DNA from: Candidatus Saccharimonadota bacterium
GTDB lineage: Bacteria > Patescibacteriota > Gracilibacteria > UBA1369 > 2-02-FULL-48-14
Length of the DNA stretch: 32,000 nt
Assembly (NCBI GenBank): GCA_965230905.1
Contig: OZ246396.1
Coordinates: 1-32,000, forward strand
Direction: 5' to 3'
In this document: positions 2,209-30,745 of the stretch, in pieces
Position numbering within the stretch: the stretch's first letter is position 1
Layout: the number at the start of each line of letters is the position of its first letter
Position numbers and translations under genes: made by a program
The notes under the pieces: model-generated
The model's database searches: none
What the model saw: the letters and a program-made list of their open reading frames with translations, nothing else
What the model was told of the DNA's origin: nothing

Positions 2209-2667
2209 ATGACGCAGAAACCACAAAAACTTTACCACGGAACGAACAAACGCATCAGTGGAGCGCTTAAGCCGATTTTTGCAACGGAAAGGCTCGATTT
2301 AGCGGCGCTGTTCATGTTCCCTTTCGACCATATTGCGAGCATAGGATTTGAGGAAGACACCGCCTACATCTGCATTTGGGGTACGCCGGAAGCATTTGAA
2401 GAAAAAGATTTTGGTGGATTTATTTATGTGCTCCCCAGTACGACTTTTGAAAAAATCGGCAAAGATTACGAGTACCAAAGCTTTGAAGCGGTGGAACCGG
2501 AGACCACGAAAGTTTTTGAATCCGTAATCGACGGAATGATGGATTGCGGTGTACAGGTTTATTTTATTGATGATGAAGCAGTTTTTGATCAGATTGTGGC
2601 CGATAAGAAAAATCGCGCGCCCTTATTGAAGACTCTGGTTTCGGAGAATGAGAAGGAGGAGGATTAG
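2209..2667 (+). CDS. hypothetical protein (152 aa)
   Basis: This is ORF 2143..2667 trimmed to ATG 2209 (MTQKPQKLYHGTNKR...), because the upstream 22 codons overlap the divergent 1959..2165 ORF. No motif recognised. The C-terminus is acidic. Confidence 0.55.
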   Translation: MTQKPQKLYHGTNKRISGALKPIFATERLDLAALFMFPFDHIASIGFEEDTAYICIWGTPEAFEEKDFGGFIYVLPSTTFEKIGKDYEYQSFEAVEPETTKVFESVIDGMMDCGVQVYFIDDEAVFDQIVADKKNRAPLLKTLVSENEKEED

Positions 2668-3137
2668 CCTAAAAGGTTTCTGAGTTTTGGGAAGCGTTTG
2701 CAGATAGGAAGTTTGCCGCACCATGCGTCGAGGCCGTAAACGCGCCCGGCTTGAATCGCGACGAGGAATAGTAGAGCAAAACTATAAATGATGTGTTCAT
2801 CCACAATGAGTGCGTGTTCATTTGGGTATGGGAAACCGAGAGCGAGGTAGTAAAGCATCATCAAAAGAATTCCCAGTACGCCACTGAGTCGGACAAAAAG
2901 CCCAAGTATGAGGGAAACTCCTAAAAGGGTAAGTCCCCACTCATTCATAAAGTCTATGGCTGGCAAAAAGCTGGAATTGGCCATCCATACATAAAATCCG
3001 GTGGAGTCCGTTGCGTTTTCTAAATAACCCTGGGACGTCCACTCTGGGTCTAGGACCTTGGAGATCCCTGCGTAAAAAAACATCCAACCCAAGCTCACGC
3101 GAAAAAGAGTGAGTGAAATTTTTTGGAATTTTTTCAT
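2664..3137 (-). CDS. DoxX family membrane protein
   Basis: The N-terminus LFRVSLGWMFFYAGISKV is typical of DoxX. There are four hydrophobic helices in 157 aa. The start overlaps the VKOR stop in an ATGA (3134-3137). Confidence 0.8.
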   Translation of the reverse strand: MKKFQKISLTLFRVSLGWMFFYAGISKVLDPEWTSQGYLENATDSTGFYVWMANSSFLPAIDFMNEWGLTLLGVSLILGLFVRLSGVLGILLMMLYYLALGFPYPNEHALIVDEHIIYSFALLFLVAIQAGRVYGLDAWCGKLPICKRFPKLRNLLG

Positions 3138-3577
3138 GAAGCGCGTTTGGTGAGTTTATAAAGCGAGAGCGCAAAGGCCCATTCAATCAAAATAATGATT
3201 TGTTGGGTGACGCAGAATAGACAGTAGGTATGCAGCACAAAACTTTCCACGGCGGTGAGGTAAAGGGTGAAAGCCACTCCCCCGCTCAAAACTAAAAAGT
3301 ACCAAGGGATGAAGCGGTTTTGATTTTTCCGCAGTCCGCGCAGGGCGAAAATAAAGAAGCTGAGGTAGGCCGCGAAGCCAATGGCGGCCACGGGAACGCC
3401 AGCGATTTCCGCATAAATACTTTTGTTCACGATTTCACAATTCCACTGCTCCCCCAAATTACAAAAATCCGTGAGAGAGGGCTCAAAATGAACGTAAACT
3501 AAATAGCCGCTCACCACCATGCCCAAAAAGTTCAAGACTGCGAGGACTTTGTAATGCGTTTTTTGAGTGAGTTTCAT
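3134..3577 (-). CDS. vitamin K epoxide reductase (VKOR) family thiol oxidoreductase
   Basis: It has a loop cysteine pair CNLGEQWNC, a conserved S.Y....GVP.A..G segment (KSIYAEIAGVPVAAIG), and a CxxC in the last helix (YCLFCVTQQ). 4-5 TM segments. Confidence 0.8.
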   Translation of the reverse strand: MKLTQKTHYKVLAVLNFLGMVVSGYLVYVHFEPSLTDFCNLGEQWNCEIVNKSIYAEIAGVPVAAIGFAAYLSFFIFALRGLRKNQNRFIPWYFLVLSGGVAFTLYLTAVESFVLHTYCLFCVTQQIIILIEWAFALSLYKLTKRAS

Positions 3578-13112: not shown

Positions 13113-14069
13113 ATGATCAACGATAAAGTCACTCAAATTTTCATGGATATCGCGGATCTGCTGCAAGTGCAGGGCGAGAGTATTTTTCGTGTGCGGGCTT
13201 ATCAACGTGCGGCGGAAGTCATAAAAGGTCTGCCGTTGGATTTGGAAGAAATGTATACAAAAGACGAAGCCTCGCTGGAGGAAATTCCGGGTGTGGGAGC
13301 GGAGCTTAAACTCAAAATCATCGACATTATTAAGACGGGCACTACGCCGATGTATGAAGAGTTGGTTCGTAAGCTTGGACCGGGAGTTTTGCAAATGCTG
13401 AGGGTGCGCGGAGTGGGACCAAAAAAAGTGAAACTCTTTATGGAGCAGCTCGACATTCACGATGTGCCAGCTTTGAAAGCGGCTGGTGAAAGTGGCGCAC
13501 TCGCAACCTTGCCCGGCATGGGCGAAAAAAGTCAGTCCGCCATCATGGAATCTTTGTCACAAATGACGCATTTGAAAGAACGAACGCCTTATGCAGTAGC
13601 GCTCAAACAAGCCGAAGACATGATCGCGTATCTGCAAACCTGCGAGTACTTCGACCAAATTCAGTACGCCGGCAGTTTGCGCCGCAAAATGAAGACCATT
13701 GGGGACGTGGATATTTTGACGACCGGTTCGAATCACGAGGCCATGATGAAACACTTCCTCGCCTATCCCGGGTGCAAACAGGTTTTGGCGGACGGTGCCA
13801 CAAAGTGCAGCATCGTGACCGACATGGACATGCAGGTGGATTTGCGCGCCGTGCCCGAGGAAAGTTTTGGTGCCGCGCTGTTTTATTTCACGGGACCCAA
13901 GCATTTCAATATTCATGTTCGTACCATTGCGCTTAAACGCGGCTGGAAGATCAACGAATACGGCCTCTATGAAGGTGAAAATTTATTGGCGAGCAGCACG
14001 GAAGAAGAAATTTTTGAGCAACTGGGCCTGCCTTACATGACGCCGCAGCAACGAGAAGATTTTAAATAA
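13113..14069 (+). CDS. polX: family X DNA polymerase, polymerase-beta-like core only (no PHP domain)
   Basis: HhH motifs are IPGVGAELKLKI, VRGVGPKKVKLF and LPGMGEKSQSAI. The nucleotidyltransferase motif is GSLRRKMKTIGDVDIL. It also has a thumb region (FGAALFYFTGPKHFN, INEYGL). It ends at LGLPYMTPQQREDFK*, where full-length bacterial PolX proteins continue into a PHP domain. Confidence 0.85.
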   Translation: MINDKVTQIFMDIADLLQVQGESIFRVRAYQRAAEVIKGLPLDLEEMYTKDEASLEEIPGVGAELKLKIIDIIKTGTTPMYEELVRKLGPGVLQMLRVRGVGPKKVKLFMEQLDIHDVPALKAAGESGALATLPGMGEKSQSAIMESLSQMTHLKERTPYAVALKQAEDMIAYLQTCEYFDQIQYAGSLRRKMKTIGDVDILTTGSNHEAMMKHFLAYPGCKQVLADGATKCSIVTDMDMQVDLRAVPEESFGAALFYFTGPKHFNIHVRTIALKRGWKINEYGLYEGENLLASSTEEEIFEQLGLPYMTPQQREDFK

Positions 14070-19504: not shown

Positions 19505-19915
19505 ATGGGAAGTTTTCCAAATAAGTTCACTGAAAGCGGGTATGCGAGTGTTTATTTGAATGATTTAGAAAGATGTCGGGGACAACTGACTCTAGACCAA
19601 TGTCGCGCTCTTTTTGATGCACTCAATTCATTTTTAATGCCGGTCCAAGCCACTGAATCCGAGCCTACTCCAGCTACGCTCGGCCTGCTCATTTTATTGG
19701 AGGCGAATGTGGGCCACAGAGGCCCTCTGGATAGTCTCACTAAGTTTGTAGAGATCTATGGATCGGAGCAAGCCAACGTGGATTATGCAGCAAATCGTCC
19801 TCATGAAATTCGCGGCGAAAAGCCCGAACTCACTCCTTCAGAAAAGCCCGTGGATCTTCAAGCGGTGAGCGCTCATATTAAGCTTTTGCTCAGAACTTGG
19901 GTAGGCCTCACTTAA
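19505..19915 (+). CDS. hypothetical protein (136 aa)
   Basis: ORF with a plausible promoter. No motif recognised. Its 3' end overlaps the PKD gene stop by 8 nt. Confidence 0.5.
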   Translation: MGSFPNKFTESGYASVYLNDLERCRGQLTLDQCRALFDALNSFLMPVQATESEPTPATLGLLILLEANVGHRGPLDSLTKFVEIYGSEQANVDYAANRPHEIRGEKPELTPSEKPVDLQAVSAHIKLLLRTWVGLT

Positions 19916-22079
19916 CCGTGATGGTCTTGGTGATGCTGTCCACGATGCCAGTGTCTTCAGTGATCTCAAGCGTGATCGTGTAGGTTCCTGCGCTGTCGTA
20001 GGTGTGGGTTCCCGGTTTGCGGTCGAAACTGATTTCGCCGTCGCCAAAGTTCCATTCATAACTTTGAATGGTTCCTTGTGAACAAGAAGGGTCCACCACC
20101 ACAAAGAGTGGCGCGTTACCGGTAGATTCGTTCACCGTGAAACATGCGGTGAGGGAAACGGGGCGTACCACCACTTGCATGGTATCAGTGGCTCGTTCAC
20201 CGTCATCGCCGATTACGGTGAGGGTCACCGTGTAGGTTCCCACGGCGTTGTATTTGTAAGTAACCGTGGCGTCGCCCACATAGAGGTCACTGCCGTCGCC
20301 GAAGTCGATTTCATAAGAAACGATGTCCCCTTCTTTATAAGTAGAAGCGGAGGCGTCGAAGGCAATGGTGAGGGGCACTTCTCCGTTGGAGCTGTTGGAT
20401 TCCAAAATGGCTACGATGCCTTGTTCGCCCACTTGCACAGCTACCGTGGTTTCGTCGGAATTTCCGGCGGAGTCGGTGACGATGAGGCGAGCTTCGTAGC
20501 TGCCGGTTTCGGCATAGGTGTAGGTCACCTTATTTCCGGTTTCGTCCACTTCGCCGTCGTTATCAAAATCCCATTCGTAATCCACAATGTCGTCCTCGGG
20601 ATCGGTGGAGCTGGATCCATCAAAGTCCACTTTCAAGGGCACGGCGCCAGAAACACTGCCAGCGGCAAGGGCTGGAGTGGTTTTGATCACGGCAGATGGA
20701 GGGGTTCCCTCTTCCACCACTTGGATTTCCAAAATGGCTTCATCCGAATTTCCATCCGCATCGAGCACGGTGAGAGAAACTTCATAGTCACCGGCGGTGT
20801 CATACGTGTGGCTCACGCTGCGGCTTTCGAGTTTGGTTCCATCCCCAAGGTCCCATTTGTATTTAACGATTTTTTGGTCGCGGTATTGGGAAAGCTCTCC
20901 ATCAAAGTCGTATTCTTCATCGATATAGTAAATTTCGCCGTCCCCGAGTGGAGGCGTGATGATGGCACGAAGTCCACCCACACTGCCGGCTTCAATGGTT
21001 TCGGTGACCGTAGCAAATTCTCCGTTGTTGTCGGTCACACGGAGCGTGATTTCGTAAGTTCCTTCCTGAAGGAATTCATACTCCACGATTTCTCCTTCGG
21101 CGTCATCAAAACGTCCATCGGCATCAAAGTCCCATTCGTAGGCCACGATTTCTCCATCTGGATCAAAAGAACTGGTGGCGTCGAATTCCACAAGCAGAGG
21201 CACTTCCCCACTGTCGGGCTTGGCCACAAAGGAAGCGGCCGTCATTTCGTTTTCAATCACTACTTCCGTAGAGGTTTCGTAATCGAAACGGGCTCCGCTC
21301 TTGAGGTCCATGTATTCCACATTCAATGTCACGGTGTAGATTCCGTTTCCTTCGGCTTTTTGAGTGTATTCATGCGTCACGGTCTGACCGTTCCCAGTGC
21401 TGCCGTCTCCAAAATTCCAGGTGTAAGCCAGGATGCTGTAGGTGCCGGTATCAATGGGAATCAAGCTCGCGTCAAAGGTAATAGTGATGGGCGACGTGAG
21501 TCCAATGGTGTCCTCCGGCGTGGTGATAATAGGTGAACCAAAACGCGCTTCGGTGACCAAGCGTGGACCCAGGAACCAAATTCCCACCAGCCACAAAACG
21601 GTGGCGAGTAAAAAGCCGAGTCCGTACCACAGCGCCATGCGAGAGAATTTTTTCTTCTTGTCGACTTCTTCTTTTTTAGTGAGCAAAGAACGTAGCAAAC
21701 CGTAGAGAGCCATGAGCAGTGTAATTCCCACAGTTACCCCCAAAAGCACATTGAAAATTCCGTAGAAGAATCCGCTCATGCTGGCTTGAGAAATGGGCAG
21801 GTAATTGAAAAGCGAAAGTTCTTTGTTGGCGAGGAAAAGAGCCCATGCAAACACAATCACCAGCAAAAGCACATAAGAAACGGCGCTCACGATTCCCAAA
21901 CGTTTGAACATGGCCTTACGCTTCGCCAACTTTTCTTCCGGCGTTAGCACTTTTTTAGGTGCGGGCGCGGGTGCCACAGCGGGAACCGGAGCCACTGGAG
22001 GCGGAACAGCAGAACCTGTCGGTTCAGCGGGGACAGGAATGCCTGAACCTGTCGGTTCAGTAGGCGTGGTTTCGTCCAT
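19908..22079 (-). CDS. membrane-anchored PKD-repeat protein (723 aa; Pro-rich N-terminus, 3 TM, 6 PKD domains)
   Basis: The N-terminus is PTEPTGSGIPVPAEPTGSAVPPPVAPVPAVAPAPAPKK. TM helices lie at about aa 61-83, 104-128 and 148-170. Six W-[DN]-[FL]-[GD]-D-G type PKD signatures are present: YTWNFGDGS, YEWDFDADG, YKWDLGDGT, YEWDFDNDG, YEIDFGDGS and YEWNFGDGE. Confidence 0.85.
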   Translation of the reverse strand: MDETTPTEPTGSGIPVPAEPTGSAVPPPVAPVPAVAPAPAPKKVLTPEEKLAKRKAMFKRLGIVSAVSYVLLLVIVFAWALFLANKELSLFNYLPISQASMSGFFYGIFNVLLGVTVGITLLMALYGLLRSLLTKKEEVDKKKKFSRMALWYGLGFLLATVLWLVGIWFLGPRLVTEARFGSPIITTPEDTIGLTSPITITFDASLIPIDTGTYSILAYTWNFGDGSTGNGQTVTHEYTQKAEGNGIYTVTLNVEYMDLKSGARFDYETSTEVVIENEMTAASFVAKPDSGEVPLLVEFDATSSFDPDGEIVAYEWDFDADGRFDDAEGEIVEYEFLQEGTYEITLRVTDNNGEFATVTETIEAGSVGGLRAIITPPLGDGEIYYIDEEYDFDGELSQYRDQKIVKYKWDLGDGTKLESRSVSHTYDTAGDYEVSLTVLDADGNSDEAILEIQVVEEGTPPSAVIKTTPALAAGSVSGAVPLKVDFDGSSSTDPEDDIVDYEWDFDNDGEVDETGNKVTYTYAETGSYEARLIVTDSAGNSDETTVAVQVGEQGIVAILESNSSNGEVPLTIAFDASASTYKEGDIVSYEIDFGDGSDLYVGDATVTYKYNAVGTYTVTLTVIGDDGERATDTMQVVVRPVSLTACFTVNESTGNAPLFVVVDPSCSQGTIQSYEWNFGDGEISFDRKPGTHTYDSAGTYTITLEITEDTGIVDSITKTITVK
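19911..21527 (-). repeat. array of six PKD/Ig-like domain repeats (coding)
   Basis: Units of ~85-95 aa each contain PL.V.FDAS.S.D.DG.I..Y.WDFGDG.....G....H.Y...G.Y.V.L.V.D..G. Confidence 0.8.
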
Positions 22080-22092
22080 ATTTAGCGTTTAA

Positions 22093-25000
22093 TTATAGGT
22101 TGTGGCTTCGCTTGGTTGACGATTTAAAAGTGAGGCTGATACCCGCGATGGCGGTTACCAGGGCGCTGACAATGAGCATCATCATTTCGCTGGGCGTAGC
22201 ATTGAAAAGATTAGCACTTCCCAAGGATCCTTCAAAGACAACTTGGAGCGTCGAAATGTCGCTCTCGCCGGTGTCTTCATCGGTCACGGTGAGTTTAACC
22301 ACCACTTGGCCGTAGGATTTGAAGAAAGGTGTCTTCCAGGTTCCTGAGGAATCGTCGTCGTAGTCTTCGTCGTTGTCACGGAGGCCGTCGCCATCGGTGT
22401 CGTAGAAAATGTTTTTATCCAGCACGTAGCTGAAGTTTCCACTTCCGCCTTCGGCTCCGTAGTAGAAGGTCACTTGATCGCCGTCGTCTTCCAAAATAAC
22501 TTGGCTCAGGGAGTTCGGCTGAGGCGTAGAGGTGAACAGCGCGGTCACGGGCTCAACCGGGTTGGGCACCTCCACGGTTTGAATCACGGTGTCGGTTTTT
22601 CCAAAGGTGTCTTCCACCAACATTTTCACTTCGTAATCCCCATAGTCGTCGTATTCAAAGGTAGGATTCTTGGTGGTCGCGTCGCTGTCGTTTTCAGGAT
22701 CGGTGTCGCCGTCCGTGTCGGCGGTGAGGTTGAGATCCCAGCTGTAACTGCGTACATCGGCGCCGTTGGCGGTGTCGAGCACGGTTTCATTTTTGAATTC
22801 AACGGTGCGATCTTCCACGTTATACGAGAAGCCGGCAACGGGTGCTTTGGTATCGAGCACGTTCACCGCTTGGGTTACGCTGTCGCTTTGGCCGGTGGTG
22901 TCCACCACGGTCATCTTAACTTGGTAGGTTCCCAAGGCTTCGTAAGTGTAGGAAGGATTTTCTTCAAAGGAATCGGAGTCGTCGTCCACGGTTCCGTTTC
23001 CATTGCTGTCCACAGCCGTGTTGAAGTCCCAGTAAATTCCCGTGAGGTCGGCTCCGTTTTCGGTGTCTATAATAGAGTTGTTGCGGAAGCTCACGGTGGT
23101 TCCGTTGATGTCCGCCAAGAAAGCGGCATCCGGCGCGGCAGAAACCGCGTCCACAAAAATGGTGAGCGATTCGGAGGTGGCGGTGGCACCAGAGCTGTCT
23201 TCTACTTTGAGTTGAACCTCCACTCCCTCAGGATGGATTTGGCTGAAAGCGTATTCCAAGGATCCGTCTTCGGTGGGCTCGTTATCAAAGAATCCGTTTC
23301 CTTCAATGTCCCACCAGTAGTTCACAATTTCTCCATCGGTATCGTAGGAGGTGCTGGAGAATGTGATTTCTTCACCCACATAAACCGAGGTGCGGTTCAC
23401 GGTGAATCCAGCCACGGGGGTGTCGTTGGGCCCATTGGTGACTTCCAAAGTTGGGATGGTCGCCGCTTCGAGTTCATCGAAGGACGACACGGTGTTGTTT
23501 TGATTGTCCGTCACTTCCACCGCAAATCCATATTCCAGCGCTTCGCCGGTTTCGCCTTTCGTATTAATAGTCATGCTGAAGGTATTGCTCGCGGAACTGA
23601 TGGTTCCGAGTTCGGTCGCGGTGTCGTTGAGGTCGTAGTACCACGCTCTAAAGTTAGTGAGCTTGCCGTCTTCATCGGTGGCATCCACCGTTACATTTAC
23701 TTTGAGCGGCGTTTCCAAACTGTCCCCTTGCGGAATCACGGTGAGCCCCAGAATCTCTGGGTCGATTCCTTCTATAGTGATGAGCAGTGAGGTTTCGTCG
23801 GTGATCGCGTTGTCGTCTTCATCACGCACTGTCAATTTCACGGTGTAGGTCGCGGTTTCAGTGAAGGTATGCGTTACGCTGGGTTGAGAGGAAGTGACTC
23901 CGTCTCCAAAATTCCAGCTGTATTCCAAGCCGTTCTTGCTTCCGTCCACGTTCACGGACTCGTTTGCGTCGAAACGGAACTGAGTTTTAATGCTTCCACG
24001 GAAATCTGCGCCGCTGCCAATGTCTTCTCCATTGGAACCGATGCTGATCACGGCGATAGGGCTGTCGCCCGCTCCTATATATACACGCTGGGTGATGGAA
24101 TTTCGGTCTTCCTCATCGTCGAGTGCGGTCAGCGTTACTTCAAAGACGCCGGCGGATTCGTAGATATGCGTGAAGATGGCTTCCCCACGAGTCACCGTGT
24201 CCGTGAAATCCACCGTGTCGTCTCCGTAGTCGATTTCAAAAGCAGTTCCCGTTTCGCTGAGAGCGCTGAATTCCACTTCGGCTTCTCCGTTTTCGTCCAA
24301 ATTACGAGCGGTTTCGCCTTGAATATCCAGGTCCACGTCGAGCACGGAATCTATGGTGATGCTACCGATGGCCGTGTCGCTCTTTTTGAGTTCGGCGTCG
24401 TGCTGATCGTAGGCGGTTAAGGAAACTGCGTATTCTCCTTCATTGAGGAATTGAACGGTGATTTCTTTATCTTCATTTTCGGTGTCGATGATTTCATAGT
24501 CCTGCCCTTCGATTCCATCAAAATCCCATTCCAAGGTCACTACGTCGCCTTCATCGGGGTCGTAGGTGGTGCTGGCGTCGAATAAGACGGTGGCGGGTTC
24601 AGTCGCATTGGGAATAGAGTACTCGTAAGTGGCCACGGGCGCCGTGGATTCCACTAAGACTTGGCCGGTTGCAGTGTCGGTTTTTCCGCTTCCGTCCGAA
24701 ACGGTGAGCGTTACGCTGTAGACACCCGGCTGATCCAAAACGGTGCTTAAGGTGGATTCGGTTCCGTTGGTCACGGGCACCGTCACGCCATTTTTACTGA
24801 TGTCCCACGAGTAACTCACTATTTTTCCATTTTCGGTGGTGGACCCAGAGGCATCGAAGTCAAACTCGGTGTCCACGGTTCCTTCGCTGGGGCTGGCTTT
24901 AAAGCGAGCTGCGGGCGAAGCCACGTAGAGTGTGAAGTATTTGCGGTCTTTGATTCCGGTGTCGTCTGTAACGGTGAACGAAACATTGTAGGAACCGGAT

Positions 25001-27099
25001 CCGGCGTAAGCATGGGTCACGGAGCTGCCTCCGTCTTGGCCATACGGACCGGAAGAAGTTTCATTGTCTCCAAAGTCCCATTCATAATAAACGATTCCGC
25101 CTTCGGCTCCGGTGTTGCCGTCTCCGTCGGTGGTTCCGCTGGCATCAAATAGGATGCCGGTCTTTGCTTCGGTCTCTGTCACTTTAAAGTCGTTTTGATC
25201 GATGTAAGGATAGGTTCTAAAATCTGCAATGGTGGCGGGCGTTTCGGTCCCCACTTGAGCGGTGAGCACCAGCATGGATTTAGAAGGTTCTACGGAAATC
25301 GTCACGGTAGAAACTCCGGCCGCGATGTCTGGATCCTTGCTGCGTACTCGTACGCGCACTCGGTAGGTTCCCGGCTCGCTAAAGGTCGCACTCACCGCGT
25401 CCCCGGACGTGTCTTCCGACGTCACGGCGGTGGTGTTTAAAGTTCCGGGAGCCTCGTCTGTTCCAACGGGTTCATAGGTTCCATCTCCGTTCAAATCCCA
25501 TTCAATTTGAGCATCTTCCACCGTCATTCCGCTGGGGTCTTCCGTTCCCAGTACATCGAAGCGCACAATGAGCGGATCGTTTCCAGAAGTGGTGCTGGCG
25601 GAGAGTCGTACTTTTACGAATTCCAAATTCTCCACCAAAACATAAAGGTCATTCATGGACGCCACAATTTGATTGGCGGTTTGAGCGTTTACATCGCTGA
25701 CGGTTGCGGCGGCGTTGAGCTTCTCGCTGGCGGTGGTGAAAGCCTCGAGCACAGCGGTGAGGTTGGACCCAGAATCAAAATCTCCGGTGTCAAAAAGCCC
25801 CTGCATCACATCAAAGCGAAACACGAGGTCCTCCACAGCCTCCGTGTAGTCGGCGATGGCTTTATTCTGAATTTCTTCCAAGAATCCACACACGTTGTCA
25901 TCTATATCCACAATATCCACTTCATAAATAGTCACACCCAATCCGAATTCCCGTTCCACTTCTGAGGAAACTTCACGGCTCGCACAAGAATCGCTTGTTT
26001 CAATGCCTTGCTCGATTTGCGTGATGATTTCTTCTACTGTGAAGGGGGCCGTGGGTATTGCGGCCGTGGCCTCAGGAATCACCAAGGCCCACAAGGTGTC
26101 TAGGATTGAAGATTGAGTCCCACTGCGCAAATAGTTGTAGAGCGCCTGTGCGGCTTCAAAGGTTTGGCTGAGGTTATCCACTTCTCCCTGAATATCATCC
26201 ACTCCTTCGCGGAGCATATCTATATAGTCTTCCACATCGCTTTCATCGATGAGCTTGTATTGGTCGGCAAAGTCATCGTCGGCCCCTTCGGCCCATTCTA
26301 TTAAGTACTGAAGCAATCCATCCAGCGTCCAGTCGGTTTCTTCCACATCCAGCAGGATCGGCATTTCTACCGATCGCATGTAGGCCACCTCCTGGCTCAC
26401 AGTGAGCAGGGTTTGGTAGGCTTTCACGTATTCCACGCTCACGTCTTCAATTTCTTCCAATACGCTTTCGGTATCAAAGGAAGCTCCAGTTTCGGTGATG
26501 GTGGTTCCATCTACGCTTTCGACGTCCCCGTTGGAATCTCCTCCTCCCGCTTGGAGCAAGGTGTTCACCAAGGCGTAGGAACCTAAAATAATGACAATAC
26601 CAATGGCGGCGTAGCCAATGCTCTTCTTTCCTTTAGAAGCCATTTCTTCATCCCCACGGCTCAGCACATACATAAGTCCTCCGTAGATCACAATCACCAC
26701 AGAGATCAATCCCAAAAATCCCAAGGCGTAGTTCACTATGCTTTGAATGAATTCACGGGCGCTCTTATTTTCGGTCAGGCTTTCGTCGTAACCCGCCTCA
26801 CTAGGTGGCTCCAATTTTCCATCGTACTCGGTAAAGTCGATCACTTCATCCGTACTGTCACACCCCAAGCCTCCACCAAAACCCTCGGCTAAGTCGGCAC
26901 ACTGCGATTGAATGATGTCTCCTTGAGCGGAATCAGAATCTCCTCCCGTTCCCAGCAAAGCGTCCACCGCGTCAGATCCTGATTCCACACACTCTCCATT
27001 GAGTGAAAAACTACACTCCTCTGCATTAGCAAAAGGCGCCGAAACTAAACTCAAACTAAGAGCAACAAGGAAGGTGGCAAGGGATCGGCGGAGGTTCAT
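22093..27099 (-). CDS. giant surface protein (1,668 aa): signal peptide, Cys-paired head, one VirB2/TrbC-like pilin hairpin, acidic region, ~11 PKD/Ig-like repeats, C-terminal TM + basic tail
   Basis: ORF 22093..27192 trimmed to ATG 27099, giving MNLRRSLATFLVALSLSLVSAPFANA|EEC, a good signal peptide. The hairpin reads IVNYALGFLGLISVVIVIYGGLMYVLSRGDEEMASKGKKSIGYAAIGIVIILGSYALVNTLL. PKD signatures include IEWDLNGDG, YEWDFGDNE, YSWDISKNG, LEWDFDGIE, FEIDYGDDT, YSWNFGDGV, YWWDIEGNG, IYWDFNTAV and YSWDLNLTA. The C-terminus is MMMLIVSALVTAIAGISLTFKSSTKRSHNL. Confidence 0.85.
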   Translation of the reverse strand: MNLRRSLATFLVALSLSLVSAPFANAEECSFSLNGECVESGSDAVDALLGTGGDSDSAQGDIIQSQCADLAEGFGGGLGCDSTDEVIDFTEYDGKLEPPSEAGYDESLTENKSAREFIQSIVNYALGFLGLISVVIVIYGGLMYVLSRGDEEMASKGKKSIGYAAIGIVIILGSYALVNTLLQAGGGDSNGDVESVDGTTITETGASFDTESVLEEIEDVSVEYVKAYQTLLTVSQEVAYMRSVEMPILLDVEETDWTLDGLLQYLIEWAEGADDDFADQYKLIDESDVEDYIDMLREGVDDIQGEVDNLSQTFEAAQALYNYLRSGTQSSILDTLWALVIPEATAAIPTAPFTVEEIITQIEQGIETSDSCASREVSSEVEREFGLGVTIYEVDIVDIDDNVCGFLEEIQNKAIADYTEAVEDLVFRFDVMQGLFDTGDFDSGSNLTAVLEAFTTASEKLNAAATVSDVNAQTANQIVASMNDLYVLVENLEFVKVRLSASTTSGNDPLIVRFDVLGTEDPSGMTVEDAQIEWDLNGDGTYEPVGTDEAPGTLNTTAVTSEDTSGDAVSATFSEPGTYRVRVRVRSKDPDIAAGVSTVTISVEPSKSMLVLTAQVGTETPATIADFRTYPYIDQNDFKVTETEAKTGILFDASGTTDGDGNTGAEGGIVYYEWDFGDNETSSGPYGQDGGSSVTHAYAGSGSYNVSFTVTDDTGIKDRKYFTLYVASPAARFKASPSEGTVDTEFDFDASGSTTENGKIVSYSWDISKNGVTVPVTNGTESTLSTVLDQPGVYSVTLTVSDGSGKTDTATGQVLVESTAPVATYEYSIPNATEPATVLFDASTTYDPDEGDVVTLEWDFDGIEGQDYEIIDTENEDKEITVQFLNEGEYAVSLTAYDQHDAELKKSDTAIGSITIDSVLDVDLDIQGETARNLDENGEAEVEFSALSETGTAFEIDYGDDTVDFTDTVTRGEAIFTHIYESAGVFEVTLTALDDEEDRNSITQRVYIGAGDSPIAVISIGSNGEDIGSGADFRGSIKTQFRFDANESVNVDGSKNGLEYSWNFGDGVTSSQPSVTHTFTETATYTVKLTVRDEDDNAITDETSLLITIEGIDPEILGLTVIPQGDSLETPLKVNVTVDATDEDGKLTNFRAWYYDLNDTATELGTISSASNTFSMTINTKGETGEALEYGFAVEVTDNQNNTVSSFDELEAATIPTLEVTNGPNDTPVAGFTVNRTSVYVGEEITFSSTSYDTDGEIVNYWWDIEGNGFFDNEPTEDGSLEYAFSQIHPEGVEVQLKVEDSSGATATSESLTIFVDAVSAAPDAAFLADINGTTVSFRNNSIIDTENGADLTGIYWDFNTAVDSNGNGTVDDDSDSFEENPSYTYEALGTYQVKMTVVDTTGQSDSVTQAVNVLDTKAPVAGFSYNVEDRTVEFKNETVLDTANGADVRSYSWDLNLTADTDGDTDPENDSDATTKNPTFEYDDYGDYEVKMLVEDTFGKTDTVIQTVEVPNPVEPVTALFTSTPQPNSLSQVILEDDGDQVTFYYGAEGGSGNFSYVLDKNIFYDTDGDGLRDNDEDYDDDSSGTWKTPFFKSYGQVVVKLTVTDEDTGESDISTLQVVFEGSLGSANLFNATPSEMMMLIVSALVTAIAGISLTFKSSTKRSHNL
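22234..25614 (-). repeat. array of ~10-11 PKD/Ig-like domain repeats (coding), the last three with Asp-rich Ca-binding-like inserts
   Basis: PKD signatures recur every ~90-110 aa. The inserts DSNGNGTVDDDSD, DTDGDTDPENDSD and DTDGDGLRDNDEDYDDD resemble thrombospondin-type-3 / DxDxDG calcium loops. There are no cysteines in the array. Confidence 0.75.
26551..26763 (-). other. single VirB2/TrbC-like pilin hairpin module inside the giant protein
   Basis: Two TM helices are joined by the loop SRGDEEMASKGKKS. This matches the six modules of the two upstream genes, and its helix-2 ending SYALVNTLL is like their third units. Confidence 0.7.
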
Positions 27100-27178
27100 T
27101 TTGATATCGCTTGCGCGATGTCTTATTAGGCACTGACGTGCTTGGTGGCGTATTTCCATGGTAGTATAGAGGTTTTTA

Positions 27179-28150
27179 TCAGGACGCATCAAGAGTAACC
27201 ACTGTATTCACAATGGCGAAGGCGGCGAGTGCCAGAATAATTCCCACGGCGGCTCCCATCATGATCTTCTTGGATTTGGCTACGTTGTCCTCGTTTTGAG
27301 CGCCCAGCGTGTACAAATAACCGGCGTACAAAAGGAAGGCAAAGGCCAAGGTTCCCATGGTTCCGACAATAAAGTTGGTGACTTGAACAAAGAGCAGCTT
27401 GGCTTCGTCGATTCCCAATTTGGTTCCTTGGTTTTGAAAAAGCACTTCTTTAACGGCGAACTCAGAAATTCCAATAACAAAGAGTCCCACCAAAGCCCAG
27501 GTGATTTGCTTCTTAGCTTTGGCGATTTGATCGTCGTTGGCGCTGCCGGCCACATAACGCATACCGGCCGTAACCAACATGAACACGGCAATGGAGGCAA
27601 TCACCACTTCCACCAGCCCATAAATTCCCGCAAAGAAAGTGGAGCTTTGTCGTCCAAATTCCTTAGCAGTGTCTTCTCCCGAACGTAAAATCTGGCCTTC
27701 GGCACCAAAGAACACTTCAATCAGTGAATCCGATACGAAGATGAGAATGAGTCCTTGCAGAGCATAACTGACAAAATTCTTGGATTGGCTGAGCACTTCT
27801 TCATTGTCTCTTCCGGCCGTGACCATACGTATTCCCATCATCACAATGAACAGAATGGCGATGGGGGTCACCATCAGTTTAAAAAAGTCCAGGAAGCGTT
27901 GAATGGCGGCCACAATGATGTCCGCCCCTTCCCCTTGTTCCGAGAAACTGGGCAACTCAATACCACCAGAGGGTTCAGCATCCGGATCGGCGTCTTCTTC
28001 TCCATCTTCCACTTGGCTGCTTTCTTCACTCACGTCTTCCTGCAAATCTTCCAGAATATTCTTATAATTGAAATCATCGGCCAGGGCCAACGCAGAGGGT
28101 GCGAAGACCAGGGAGGAAAGAATCGTCAATAAAAGAAGGATTTTTTTCAT
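27179..28150 (-). CDS. secreted membrane protein with three tandem VirB2/TrbC-like (T4SS_pilin-type) hairpin modules (323 aa)
   Basis: The signal peptide is MKKILLLLTILSSLVFAPSALALA|DD, followed by an acidic linker. The three units lie at nt 27707-27922, 27437-27643 and 27194-27403, with loops TAGRDNEEVLSQSKN, AGSANDDQIAKAKKQ and LGAQNEDNVAKSKKI. Confidence 0.8.
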   Translation of the reverse strand: MKKILLLLTILSSLVFAPSALALADDFNYKNILEDLQEDVSEESSQVEDGEEDADPDAEPSGGIELPSFSEQGEGADIIVAAIQRFLDFFKLMVTPIAILFIVMMGIRMVTAGRDNEEVLSQSKNFVSYALQGLILIFVSDSLIEVFFGAEGQILRSGEDTAKEFGRQSSTFFAGIYGLVEVVIASIAVFMLVTAGMRYVAGSANDDQIAKAKKQITWALVGLFVIGISEFAVKEVLFQNQGTKLGIDEAKLLFVQVTNFIVGTMGTLAFAFLLYAGYLYTLGAQNEDNVAKSKKIMMGAAVGIILALAAFAIVNTVVTLDAS

Positions 28151-28151
28151 A

Positions 28152-29081
28152 TTAGAAGGATCCGGTGATTACTGTGGATACCAGGGCAAAGGCTCCGTAA
28201 ATAATGATCACTCCAATGATGGAGTTGAAAACAATTTTTTTGGCGAGGCCGGTTCGTTCTTCGTCTCCACCGGCAGTAACATATAAAATTCCTCCTGCTA
28301 CGATTCCCAGCATCATGATGGGCCCCACAAAAGTAATGATTAAATTGGTGACTCCAACCAATTGTTGCACAAATTCATTTTGATCGAGCTTCACAATGGT
28401 TTGATTGGCGTTTTCATTGAATTCGGCCACGTAGAACACGCGGCGAATCATCAGGTCAGACACAATCACCATCAGGAGCCCTCCAGCCGCCAAGGCCAGA
28501 CTTTTCTTCTCCTTCCCCACTTCTTCTTCGTTGTCTCCGGCAACCACCATCATGGCTCCGCTTCGGATAAACATCAGGGAGGCGAGTCCTCCCAAGAGGT
28601 ATTTCACAAAAGTAATGATGAGACGGGTCGTGTTGTCGAAAAGTTGAATCCGCTGCACCAGCTTATCGGGGTCGGAAATAAAATTTCCTTCGCGGTAGTC
28701 GAAGACTTCGGCAATAGGGCCGGCAATACTGATCATTAGGAGTCCTATCAACCCGTAGGTCATGGACTTTTTCTGGGTTTTAGCCGTTTCTTCGTTGTCG
28801 CCGGAAATCACCATAGTGAACCCGGAAACCACAATAAAGAGCAGCGCCACCCCACCCACAATGATGCGCAAATTGCGTGCCGCGGGGCCGAGCAGGTTTT
28901 CCAGTTTTTCAAAGGCGCTGTCTCCTTCCGGAGCCGGCACGTCCAAGTCGTCGTTGCTTGGCAAAGGCAAGAAATCCGCTAAGGCATGCGGCGCATGAGC
29001 GGCCACCGCACCCAAAACCACAGCGAGCACAAGGCCCCCTAGGTGCAGTTTTCCAACTTTTTCAAACAGAGATCGTGCCAT
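28152..29081 (-). CDS. secreted membrane protein with three tandem VirB2/TrbC-like (T4SS_pilin-type) hairpin modules (309 aa)
   Basis: The signal peptide ends AAHAPHALA|DF. The three units lie at nt 28701-28904, 28431-28640 and 28164-28376, with loops ISGDNEETAKTQKKS, VAGDNEEEVGKEKKS and TAGGDEERTGLAKKI. The third unit (GGILYVTAGGDEERTGLAKKIVFNSIIGVIIIYGAFALV) is very close to the canonical single-hairpin CPR pilin-like proteins I remember. Confidence 0.8.
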   Translation of the reverse strand: MARSLFEKVGKLHLGGLVLAVVLGAVAAHAPHALADFLPLPSNDDLDVPAPEGDSAFEKLENLLGPAARNLRIIVGGVALLFIVVSGFTMVISGDNEETAKTQKKSMTYGLIGLLMISIAGPIAEVFDYREGNFISDPDKLVQRIQLFDNTTRLIITFVKYLLGGLASLMFIRSGAMMVVAGDNEEEVGKEKKSLALAAGGLLMVIVSDLMIRRVFYVAEFNENANQTIVKLDQNEFVQQLVGVTNLIITFVGPIMMLGIVAGGILYVTAGGDEERTGLAKKIVFNSIIGVIIIYGAFALVSTVITGSF

Positions 29082-29123
29082 GTTTTTTTGTATAGGACCC
29101 TATCGGGTCTGTTAAATCTTATT

Positions 29124-29152
29124 ATTATAGCAGAAAATGATCTGAAAGTAAA
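29124..29152 (-). promoter_or_regulatory. putative sigma70-type promoter of the hairpin/PKD operon, TTTACT-17 nt-TGcTATAAT (extended -10)
   Basis: The reverse strand reads TTTACTttcagatcattttctgcTATAAT. It is followed by a ~40-nt leader containing the hairpin GACCC-tatc-GGGTC (29096-29109) before ATG 29081. Confidence 0.4.
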
Positions 29153-30051: not shown

Positions 30052-30121
30052 TAAGATTGGATGGCTTCGCCACTTTTTAATAGGCACTAAAGTGCCTGGC
30101 CTCCGCTACGCTGCGGTCTGC

Positions 30122-30745
30122 ATGCAGAAACTCACCCTTTTTTCGGTTCTGCTTTCTATCTCCGTGATCCTCATCGTGGGAGACATTGTCTTTCATGACT
30201 ATTTAAACGAGTTCGAAGCCACAAGCCCCGTGGAGGAAACTTCTGAAGTCGCACCTTTAGATGAAGAGGCGCCTGTGGATCTTTCGGAAGAAACGGAGCC
30301 CACTTTGATTGAGTCATCGCTGAGTGCGGCGCTGTTCACGCAGGCTGGGTTTGTGCAACCGGTGCTCAAAGACACTATTTTTTCCGGCTTGGTATTCCAG
30401 TTCATTTCTTTTGCCGATCAGGAAGAGGCCACGGTCTACCAATGGAACGTTTTTGACGGCGAGCAGTACGTTGGCAGCGTGTATGAGATGAAGTACCCTA
30501 CCGAAACCGGCAGTTTTCAGGGTTATTTGGCTCTGCGGGAGCGCGCCATGAGTCTTATGGACTTGGGAAGCGTGAACGAAGTGAACAATTATGGAAACGC
30601 GTCTTTCTACTTCAATCACAAGACCAAAGTTAAGACTGTGCACGTGGTGGTTCGCAGTGGGAATGACATTTATGGCTTTGAGTACGCACAGACGAATCAT
30701 GAAAAGATGAAAAATGTGTTTGACAGCCTAAGCCCCCTTCTGTAG
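30122..30745 (+). CDS. hypothetical membrane-anchored protein (207 aa) inserted between nusG and rplK
   Basis: ORF 30029..30745 trimmed to ATG 30122 ([24 protein letters not shown], an N-terminal TM anchor). The upstream codons overlap the nusG end. An acidic linker is followed by a ~130-aa globular part. No motif recognised. Confidence 0.6.

Follow-up and report, generated by a model that had tools for sequence, protein, structure and literature searches.

What a set of conjugative pilin-like genes may be doing in a region devoid of type IV secretion system (T4SS) genes is the question raised by a four-gene operon on the minus strand of a 32,000-nt stretch of Gracilibacteria DNA (contig OZ246396.1, positions 1 to 32,000; denoted here as the window). 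The four co-directional genes, named g1 to g4 in this work, run from position 29081 down to 19908, and were first described, in a sequence-only reading, as VirB2/TrbC-like pilin hairpins linked or fused to arrays of PKD domains. The coordinates of the open reading frames (ORFs) agree with the layout given there, with intergenic gaps of 1, 79 and 13 nt between g1 and g2, g2 and g3, and g3 and g4, respectively, although the second gap is 19 nt, and not 79, when the upstream ATG at 27159, which is the choice of public gene callers, is taken as the start of g3. The answer that emerges is that the operon is a lineage-wide, chromosomally fixed envelope module of Peribacteria/Peregrinibacteria. What is new here is the fused hairpin/PKD architecture, kept throughout the lineage, the VirB2-like pilins of Patescibacteria and their arrays being already known from work published in 2023 and 2025.

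The first piece of evidence concerns the nature of the hairpins. The proteins encoded by g1 (28152..29081, 309 residues; all coordinates of operon features refer to the minus strand) and g2 (27179..28150, 323 residues) were each resolved by a hydropathy scan into a Sec signal peptide and six transmembrane (TM) helices, arranged as three hairpins, and g2 is a colinear paralog of g1, with 29% identity across all three modules. When compared with the Pfam family PF18895 (T4SS_pilin), whose gathering score is 26.6 bits, g1 yielded 75.6 bits (E 3e-21) and g2 yielded 74.7 bits (E 6e-21), in three stretches each, and g3 yielded 33.5 bits in a single stretch (residues 113-179); all three proteins thus matched above the gathering score, and the stretches add up to seven modules. 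In g1, modules 1 (28686..28895, residues 63-132) and 2 (28434..28646, residues 146-216) each form a position-specific orthologous group, and module 3 (28155..28367, residues 239-309) is of a "terminal type", akin to module 3 of g2 and to the g3 module, with which it shares 36-38% identity. The modules of g2 lie at 27701..27916 (residues 79-150), 27437..27646 (residues 169-238) and 27191..27412 (residues 247-320), and that of g3 at 26536..26751 (residues 117-188), the latter being the best conserved of the seven (mean identity of 60% between species). Matches to the TrbC/VirB2 family PF04956 (gathering score, 27.9 bits) were lower: 16.6 bits for g1, under that score, and 25.7 bits (E 1.4e-5) for g3, just under it. 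Many g1 orthologs, however, have a precomputed PF04956 match, and the two families are tied together because several other multi-hairpin proteins match both of them strongly, with up to 109 bits. In addition, g2 scored 40.6 bits against NCBIfam NF045849, the NCBIfam model of the "pilin-like conjugal transfer protein" of a mycoplasma integrative and conjugative element (ICE) was matched at or near its cutoff, and the orthologs carry the NCBI labels "pilin" or "TrbC/VirB2 family protein". For none of the four proteins did Pfam give a TrbL/VirB6 match (PF04610 or relatives) at E <= 0.1. Direct reading of the N-termini showed ordinary Sec signals ending in AxA, and no class III signal peptide with a prepilin peptidase site. 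Judged by these profiles, the seven modules can be regarded as true PF18895/VirB2-superfamily hairpins, as had been proposed at the outset; the count of three, three and one also stood, in agreement with the Pfam stretches and the TM scan, and an alignment reproduced the acidic-then-basic consensus of the hairpin loop.

The hydropathy scan and AlphaFold2 (AF2) agree on the layout of the four proteins. Each hairpin is predicted to have both its N- and its C-terminus outside, so that the linkers and both PKD arrays would be located outside the cell. The AF2 model of g1 presents three long helical hairpins (predicted local distance difference test score, pLDDT, 69), and that of the g3 hairpin two helices, 12-52 and 57-91 (pLDDT 77). 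A search with the g1 sequence profile against Protein Data Bank chains gave nothing relevant and no solved PF18895 relative. A fold search against solved VirB2/TraA pilins, which had no discriminating power, gave no significant match, and ATP synthase subunit c appeared among the non-significant Foldseek matches at rank 31.

The second line of evidence came from the comparison of related genomes, taking one genome per GTDB species. A relative of g1 is encoded in 87 species, all of them Peribacteria, Peregrinibacteria or "Gracilibacteria" metagenome-assembled genomes (MAGs), and 126 g1 homologs of about 300-310 residues were found. Gene order and synteny were counted in the 77 loci with a complete g1 ORF. 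There, g1 is followed by g2 in 72 of 73 loci, and 51 of the 52 loci with enough downstream DNA have all four genes in the order g1-g2-g3-g4. The first gene upstream, on the divergent side, is nusG in 66 of 67. Conservation of the four-gene arrangement in relatives, on which the first reading had made itself dependent, is therefore the rule among species-level loci. The internal composition of the proteins is equally constant, since the hairpin profile detected three modules in 76/77 g1, three in 76/76 g2 and one in 62/62 g3 orthologs. A key observation was that the nearest module from another species is the one in the same position in 517 of 518 cases, while identity among the modules of one genome is only about 28%. 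Taken together, these two figures argue that the seven hairpins are anciently distinct, separately constrained types and not variants of one another.

The third gene, g3 (22093..27099), encodes 1,668 residues from the ATG at 27099, with an alternative ATG at 27159. Its start is ambiguous: the mechanically delimited ORF begins at TTG 27192 and public callers use ATG 27159, but a canonical Sec signal peptide is obtained only from ATG 27099; no clear Shine-Dalgarno sequence precedes any of these three candidates. From its N-terminus, the protein is made of a signal peptide, a Cys-containing acidic region, the hairpin, an acidic helical region, ten PKD-like domains and, at the C-terminus, a TM helix followed by a basic tail; the predicted extracellular part comprises about 1,450 residues. 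The stretch between the hairpin and the PKD array is acidic, helical and not conserved. The PKD/Ig (immunoglobulin)-like array (22225..25608, residues 498-1625) contains ten domains according to a profile built in this work; the protein scored 208.7 bits against PKD_4, and Pfam gives nine PKD stretches. A candidate link to the Pam pilus (NCBIfam PamR, NF058578) was rejected, as the matches reached 36.8 and 37.8 bits against a cutoff of 300 and covered about 45 residues of a PKD-like region. Orthologs of g3, of about 1,500-1,700 residues, are found in 62 loci. They were taken from the genome scan, given that a homolog search with the N-terminal 544 residues returned only three matches, probably because of acidic low-complexity words.

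The g3 protein ends in a tripartite element (22096..22230) consisting of a G-[GA]-A-N-[LI]-F motif, 5-8 residues, a TM helix and a basic tail. The helix, placed by the hydropathy scan at residues 1640-1658, had been missed in the first reading. Of 60 full-length orthologs, 45 have the element and the other 15 lack it cleanly, so that g3 is predicted to be usually membrane-anchored at both ends. Its layout is that of a sorting signal in which G-[GA]-A-N-[LI]-F occupies the place where LPXTG would stand; this sequence matches no known motif, no LPXTG-type sortase motif exists in the g3 tail, and no other protein in the examined loci carries G-[GA]-A-N-[LI]-F.

The fourth gene, g4 (19908..22079), encodes a protein of 723 residues with a predicted Pro-rich cytoplasmic N-terminus, three TM helices and six PKD domains, that is, an N-in membrane protein according to its predicted topology. 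Its PKD array (19911..21527, residues 185-723) scored 303.8 bits against PKD_4, in six stretches, and the in-house profile also gave six domains; the PKD_4 matches of both g3 and g4 are above threshold. Orthologs of g4 were identified in 55 loci. The segment formed by TM2, a KKEEVDKKKK loop and TM3 (21567..21779) had been noted as a hairpin look-alike, and may represent a degenerate hairpin; its matches are weak, with 4-13 bits across orthologs in hmmsearch and, in hhalign, a probability of 52% (E 1.5e-4) over 47 columns, and a distant g4 ortholog (locus L088, described below) has a single TM helix at this place. On the opposite strand, two ORFs of 453 and 438 residues (20175-21536 and 22474-23790, both +) run antisense to the PKD-coding regions. 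Their translations are repetitive and G/V/H-rich, both ORFs being almost certainly artefacts that the codon composition of the PKD genes brings about.

Conservation also bears on the role of these arrays, which had been proposed to be the distal binding parts of the system. In the distant group, the g4 array has a median identity of 42%, compared with 34% in the g3 array and 36% in g1, so the PKD arrays are as conserved as the hairpin proteins or more, the g4 array being among the best-conserved parts of the operon. Moreover, both arrays are colinear with those of the orthologs, the g3 array over 97% of its length in distant relatives. Since they are conserved colinearly, domain by domain, their sequences argue for a structural role, as a stalk, spacer or sheath, and against host-specific adhesins under rapid evolution. 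The notion of distal binding parts is consequently weakened, also in view of the usual anchoring of g3 at both ends.

It was then relevant to know whether joined hairpins are peculiar to this lineage. When 1.84 billion cluster representatives were searched with a profile built from the seven modules of the window, 56,496 proteins matched at E <= 0.001, and almost all of the best 150 of these are multi-hairpin proteins, with 3 to 8, 10 or 16 modules. One such locus holds a variant of the operon (L088, 9925-16481), which encodes an 820-residue eight-hairpin protein, followed by a 155-residue single hairpin, a 383-residue hairpin-Ig/PKD fusion and a 718-residue six-PKD protein. The latter shares 37% identity with g4 and has one TM helix and a long acidic cytoplasmic N-terminus. 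The NusA protein of this contig is about 50% identical to Peregrinibacteria and Gracilibacteria proteins, and for this reason the locus was assigned to a deep-branching Gracilibacteria/Peregrinibacteria-like relative. Two further loci, one from an Andersenbacteria MAG (L091, 8649-12991) and one from a related contig (L090, 9005-14262), contain syntenic arrays in which seven or eight pilin genes, one of them for a six- or seven-hairpin protein, come after gyrA, a methyltransferase gene and a solute-binding protein gene. Finally, an Altiarchaeales MAG (L092, 4175-9247) and a syntenic contig with archaeal genes (L089, 10001-15328) encode PF18895/TrbC proteins of 1,039 and 1,775 residues with 10 to 16 hairpins, whose genes adjoin those for ribosomal protein L39e and an Mrp-type antiporter. 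No VirB4 was found in flanks of up to 10 kb of any of these five loci. At the level of sequence, hairpin concatenation is thus common, both in bacteria of the Candidate Phyla Radiation (CPR) and in Altiarchaeales. The original statement of novelty was too strong: the pilins and their arrays had already been published (PMC10633639, PMC12102498) and multi-hairpin proteins are abundant in databases. No literature was found on the covalent concatenation of VirB2-like hairpins or on a VirB2-PKD fusion.

The interpretation of these findings depends on where T4SS genes are usually found. According to a 2025 survey (PMC12102498), VirB4 is present in 2,417 of 3,035 Patescibacteria genomes (about 80%) and VirB2-like genes occur in 1,948 of the VirB4-bearing ones, being near virB4 in only 1,135; where an assembly has both, the pilin genes are distant from virB4 in about 40% of cases, and arrays of 2-11 pilin genes were counted 441 times. 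The same work reported that, in the class Gracilibacteria, the TrsD and VirB3 genes are unlinked to virB4, the T4SS genes are scattered and VirB6 was not detected, whereas most VirB6 genes detected in Patescibacteria are near virB4. In S. epibionticum, arrays of VirB2-like pilins are essential and located in the T4SS cluster (PMC10633639).

All these observations could be integrated in a model that is favored here tentatively, with slightly less than even confidence: the operon would encode hairpins that form, with lipid, a heteromeric assembly serving to anchor or display the PKD arrays, in conjunction with a T4SS ATPase whose gene lies elsewhere. In this model, the seven non-interchangeable VirB2/TrbC-type hairpins, three from g1, three from g2 and one from g3, would be inserted by Sec, with termini and linkers facing outward and the acidic-then-basic loops in the cytoplasm. 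The hairpins would then assemble side by side into one heteromeric, lipid-embedded array, which might be either a short pilus or stalk of the VirB2 kind or the membrane-resident base of one. The g3 hairpin would bear the ten-domain PKD arm, and the membrane-anchored, six-PKD g4 would join it at the cell surface. The whole would most likely be the pilin or surface part of a Patescibacteria-type, T4SS-like apparatus for cell-to-cell contact, with its VirB4-type ATPase encoded elsewhere. Co-assembly, surface display and T4SS dependence are inferred, the first of them by the "Rosetta stone" logic of gene fusions: with the hairpins fused in a constant order and every position conserved on its own, it is most likely that they touch one another within a single heteromeric assembly. 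The recurrence in the deep-branching relative of the same order, namely a multi-hairpin protein, a hairpin-Ig/PKD fusion and a g4-like six-PKD protein, gives support to this model.

Several facts weigh against it. No T4SS gene exists in the window, nor in 46 kb of the contig (positions 222,316-268,263) within the 1.3-Mb genome, nor, in about 77 related species, at less than 10 kb from the operon, which extends the original remark that no T4SS machinery is in sight. In 80 loci of relatives, the ORFs of at least 400 residues, once the operon and marker genes had been excluded, were screened for a Walker A motif; only two contained it, one being an ATP-binding cassette transporter and the other having no Pfam match. 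On this basis, a T4SS lying immediately beyond the window is excluded throughout the lineage. The accessible part of the genome table of the 2025 survey shows no Peregrinibacteria or Peribacteria rows (PMC12102498), and this lineage may be missing from the survey because NCBI taxonomy places Peregrinibacteriota outside the "Patescibacteria group". On the structural side, the comparison with solved pilins did not discriminate the hairpins from generic helical ones, and no PF18895 protein has been experimentally shown to form a filament (PMC12857230). Furthermore, the predicted second, C-terminal anchor of g3 and the N-in anchoring of g4 would fit a membrane-resident complex better than an extruded pilus, and a six-TM polypeptide would be mechanistically harder to extract from the membrane than a two-TM pilin.

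The main rival explanation, which is considered here doubtful, is the one put forward in the sequence-only reading. It holds that the system is a self-contained, T4SS-independent fibre or lattice, in which the hairpins polymerise or pack unaided after Sec insertion, with no VirB4, and the PKD arrays are borne by the resulting anchor lattice or lipid-containing protrusion. The lack of T4SS genes near the operon, here and in about 77 relatives, is what such a system would present, as is the lack of VirB4 within the flanks, of up to 10 kb, of the two CPR arrays and the two Altiarchaeales loci. The core position of the operon beside secE-nusG and the predicted anchoring of g3 at both ends and of g4 in the membrane point in the same direction. 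The literature on the group is also compatible with it, since the Peribacteria genome paper mentions a type II secretion system, type IV pili and sortase A, and no T4SS (PMC4736985); in the literature searched, no paper combining Peregrinibacteria with VirB4 was found. However, absence from the neighborhood is to be expected in any case, given that about 40% of assemblies have their pilins off virB4 and that the T4SS genes of this class are scattered (PMC12102498), and it rests on 46 kb of a 1.3-Mb genome. Every characterised VirB2-family filament needs a VirB4-type machine (PMC9905601). A broader form of the idea, which must be rated as decidedly doubtful, would be that the concatenation of VirB2-type hairpins marks a surface organelle of a class not yet described, heteromeric and embedded in lipid, which would be assembled after Sec insertion without a VirB4 ATPase, as a pilus-like extension or as an Ig/PKD-bearing lattice. 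This organelle would belong to the core features of Peribacteria and have relatives in other CPR lineages and Altiarchaeales. Were it true, the label "T4SS pilin" would be misleading for a large share of the roughly 56,000 cluster representatives of PF18895.

An unlikely explanation takes g1 and g2 for polytopic subunits of a translocon or platform, similar to VirB6, generated by repetition of the hairpin and forming part of a channel, not of a filament, g3 being then comparable to an "extended VirB6". Their six TM helices, constant length and one-to-one orthology would suit such subunits. Beltran et al. considered VirB2-like pilins homologous to the N-terminal part of VirB6/CedA (PMC9905601), "extended" VirB6 proteins do have large hydrophilic domains (PMC12857230), and no VirB6 homologs were detected in the class Gracilibacteria (PMC12102498). 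This notion is opposed by the lack of any Pfam TrbL/VirB6 match at the threshold given above and by the lack of adjacency to VirB4, when most of the VirB6 genes detected in Patescibacteria are near virB4, and proteins with up to 16 hairpins are hard to square with a defined channel subunit.

Even more improbable is that g3 and g4 are ordinary S-layer-like or wall-spanning PKD proteins, whose hairpins are mere anchors with a functionless likeness to pilins, g1 and g2 being unrelated small membrane proteins. The colinear conservation of the arrays is indeed that of structural proteins, and fold searches do not separate these hairpins from generic helical ones. Nonetheless, the PF18895 matches are strong and specific (E 1e-21), seven modules with one motif are co-inherited with the PKD genes in fixed order in 51/52 loci, and the association of hairpins with PKD domains recurs in a distant relative with a different gene architecture. 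Finally, that these are pilin or adhesin genes of a conjugative or integrative mobile element, as the name of the family and the match to the pilin-like protein of a mycoplasma ICE might suggest, is effectively refuted by the secE-nusG-rplK-rplA neighborhood, constant in 66/67 species, and is further opposed by a native composition (G+C of 0.50-0.53 in the locus and 0.43-0.54 elsewhere in the window) and by the lack of relaxase, coupling protein and integrase genes near the operon and of tRNA genes in the window, in keeping with what the first reading had held.

As for the setting of the operon, a sigma-70-like sequence, TTTACT-17-TGcTATAAT (29124..29152, minus strand), lies in the 190-nt divergent spacer between g1 and secE, and is a plausible promoter judging by its sequence. 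It is the best consensus match in the region (10/12, with an extended -10), which agrees with the initial proposal, but the count of such sites gives it no statistical support, eight being found in the region versus 7.5 in shuffled sequences. Divergently upstream of the operon lie secE-nusG-rplK-rplA, and this cluster has an unusual break: between nusG and rplK sits a gene of 217 residues (30092-30745, +) with an N-terminal TM helix and no Pfam match, which keeps this position lineage-wide despite a median identity of 26% in distant relatives. The remaining genes of the window are of the housekeeping kind, encoding rRNA and tRNA methyltransferases, a lyase, PolX, ZnuA and a VKOR-DoxX pair. The family X (Pol beta-like) DNA polymerase (13113-14069, +) has only 318 residues, with HHH_8, thumb and weak palm matches. 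Among these genes, too, is one for a protein of 319 residues with a Bro-N domain (986-1945, -), a domain often associated with phages; the public call is of 309 residues, and an exact-match look-up of the 319-residue form gave nothing. The neighboring VKOR and DoxX/MauE genes (2664-3577, -) are a likely extracytoplasmic disulfide-forming pair. Beside this it may be mentioned that the mature N-terminus of g3 has four cysteines, and that Cys-rich proteomes have been reported for Peribacteria (PMC4736985).

Two questions are touched by these results. It is an openly stated question whether a pilus is built by the T4SS-like systems of monoderm Patescibacteria (PMC12857230), and a second one is why divergent VirB2-like pilins are retained in arrays by these bacteria. 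The suggestion made in the 2025 survey was that pilin paralogs provide versatility towards different hosts (PMC12102498). The operon offers gene-fusion evidence for a different answer, that is, one heteromeric assembly of fixed composition instead of a set of interchangeable variants, because its hairpins are joined in a fixed order, each position is separately conserved and one of them bears a surface array. In practical terms, g1 and g2 would be natural covalent "pseudo-oligomers", which should be easier to model or solve than loose subunits, and the operon supplies candidate contact-surface proteins for an uncultured groundwater lineage. If these genomes lack VirB4, a large part of the PF18895 family would be separated from type IV secretion.

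Among known systems, the closest are the VirB2-like arrays of Patescibacteria T4SS, such as SEML1_0006-0019 of S. epibionticum (Wang et al. 2023, PMC10633639; Quinonero-Coronel et al. 2025, PMC12102498), with which the operon has in common the PF18895 family and, with matches here under the gathering score, PF04956. In both cases, divergent hairpin paralogs stand side by side, with a within-genome identity of about 28% here and a published average of 25%, and both are chromosomal, have no relaxase and belong to monoderm hosts. The seven modules described here also fit the published range of two to eleven tandem VirB2-like units (PMC12102498). In contrast, the units of the published arrays are separate small genes, often inside a T4SS cluster, whereas here the hairpins are fused three plus three, one more is joined to a 1,450-residue PKD protein, and one-to-one orthology extends throughout the lineage with no virB4 within 10 kb in about 77 species.

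The VirB2/TraA/TrbC pilins of diderms and those of the archaeal Ced/Ted pili (CedA1, TedC; PMC9905601) share with the predicted layout of these hairpins a pair of long helices with a short charged loop between them, a Sec signal of the type removed by signal peptidase I, and the location of both termini on the outer side. As both termini of the hairpins would be outside, head-to-tail concatenation and the display of a C-terminal domain are geometrically compatible with a VirB2-like packing; some pilins are reported to be cyclised head to tail (PMC12037004). Those pilins, however, are single hairpins that form lipid-containing homopolymers, assembled by an adjacent VirB4/VirB6 machine. The Pam pili of CPR bacteria (bioRxiv 10.64898/2026.03.03.709456) are likewise a CPR-specific surface filament with Ig-like domains, but their subunits have an Ig fold and are joined by donor-strand exchange, and the two systems are unrelated. 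VirB6 and the "extended VirB6" proteins resemble those of the operon in having at least five TM helices and, in some cases, large hydrophilic domains, and homology between VirB2 and the N-terminus of VirB6 has been proposed (PMC9905601). They differ in that the operon proteins have no TrbL/VirB6 profile match and in that g1 and g2 each consist of a pilin module cleanly repeated three times. Lastly, by analogy only and with no sequence relationship, g1 and g2 bring to mind the rotor proteolipids of V/A-type ATPases, in which the two-TM hairpin of a homo-oligomer has been duplicated or triplicated into one polypeptide, thus fixing the stoichiometry and letting the subunits specialise.

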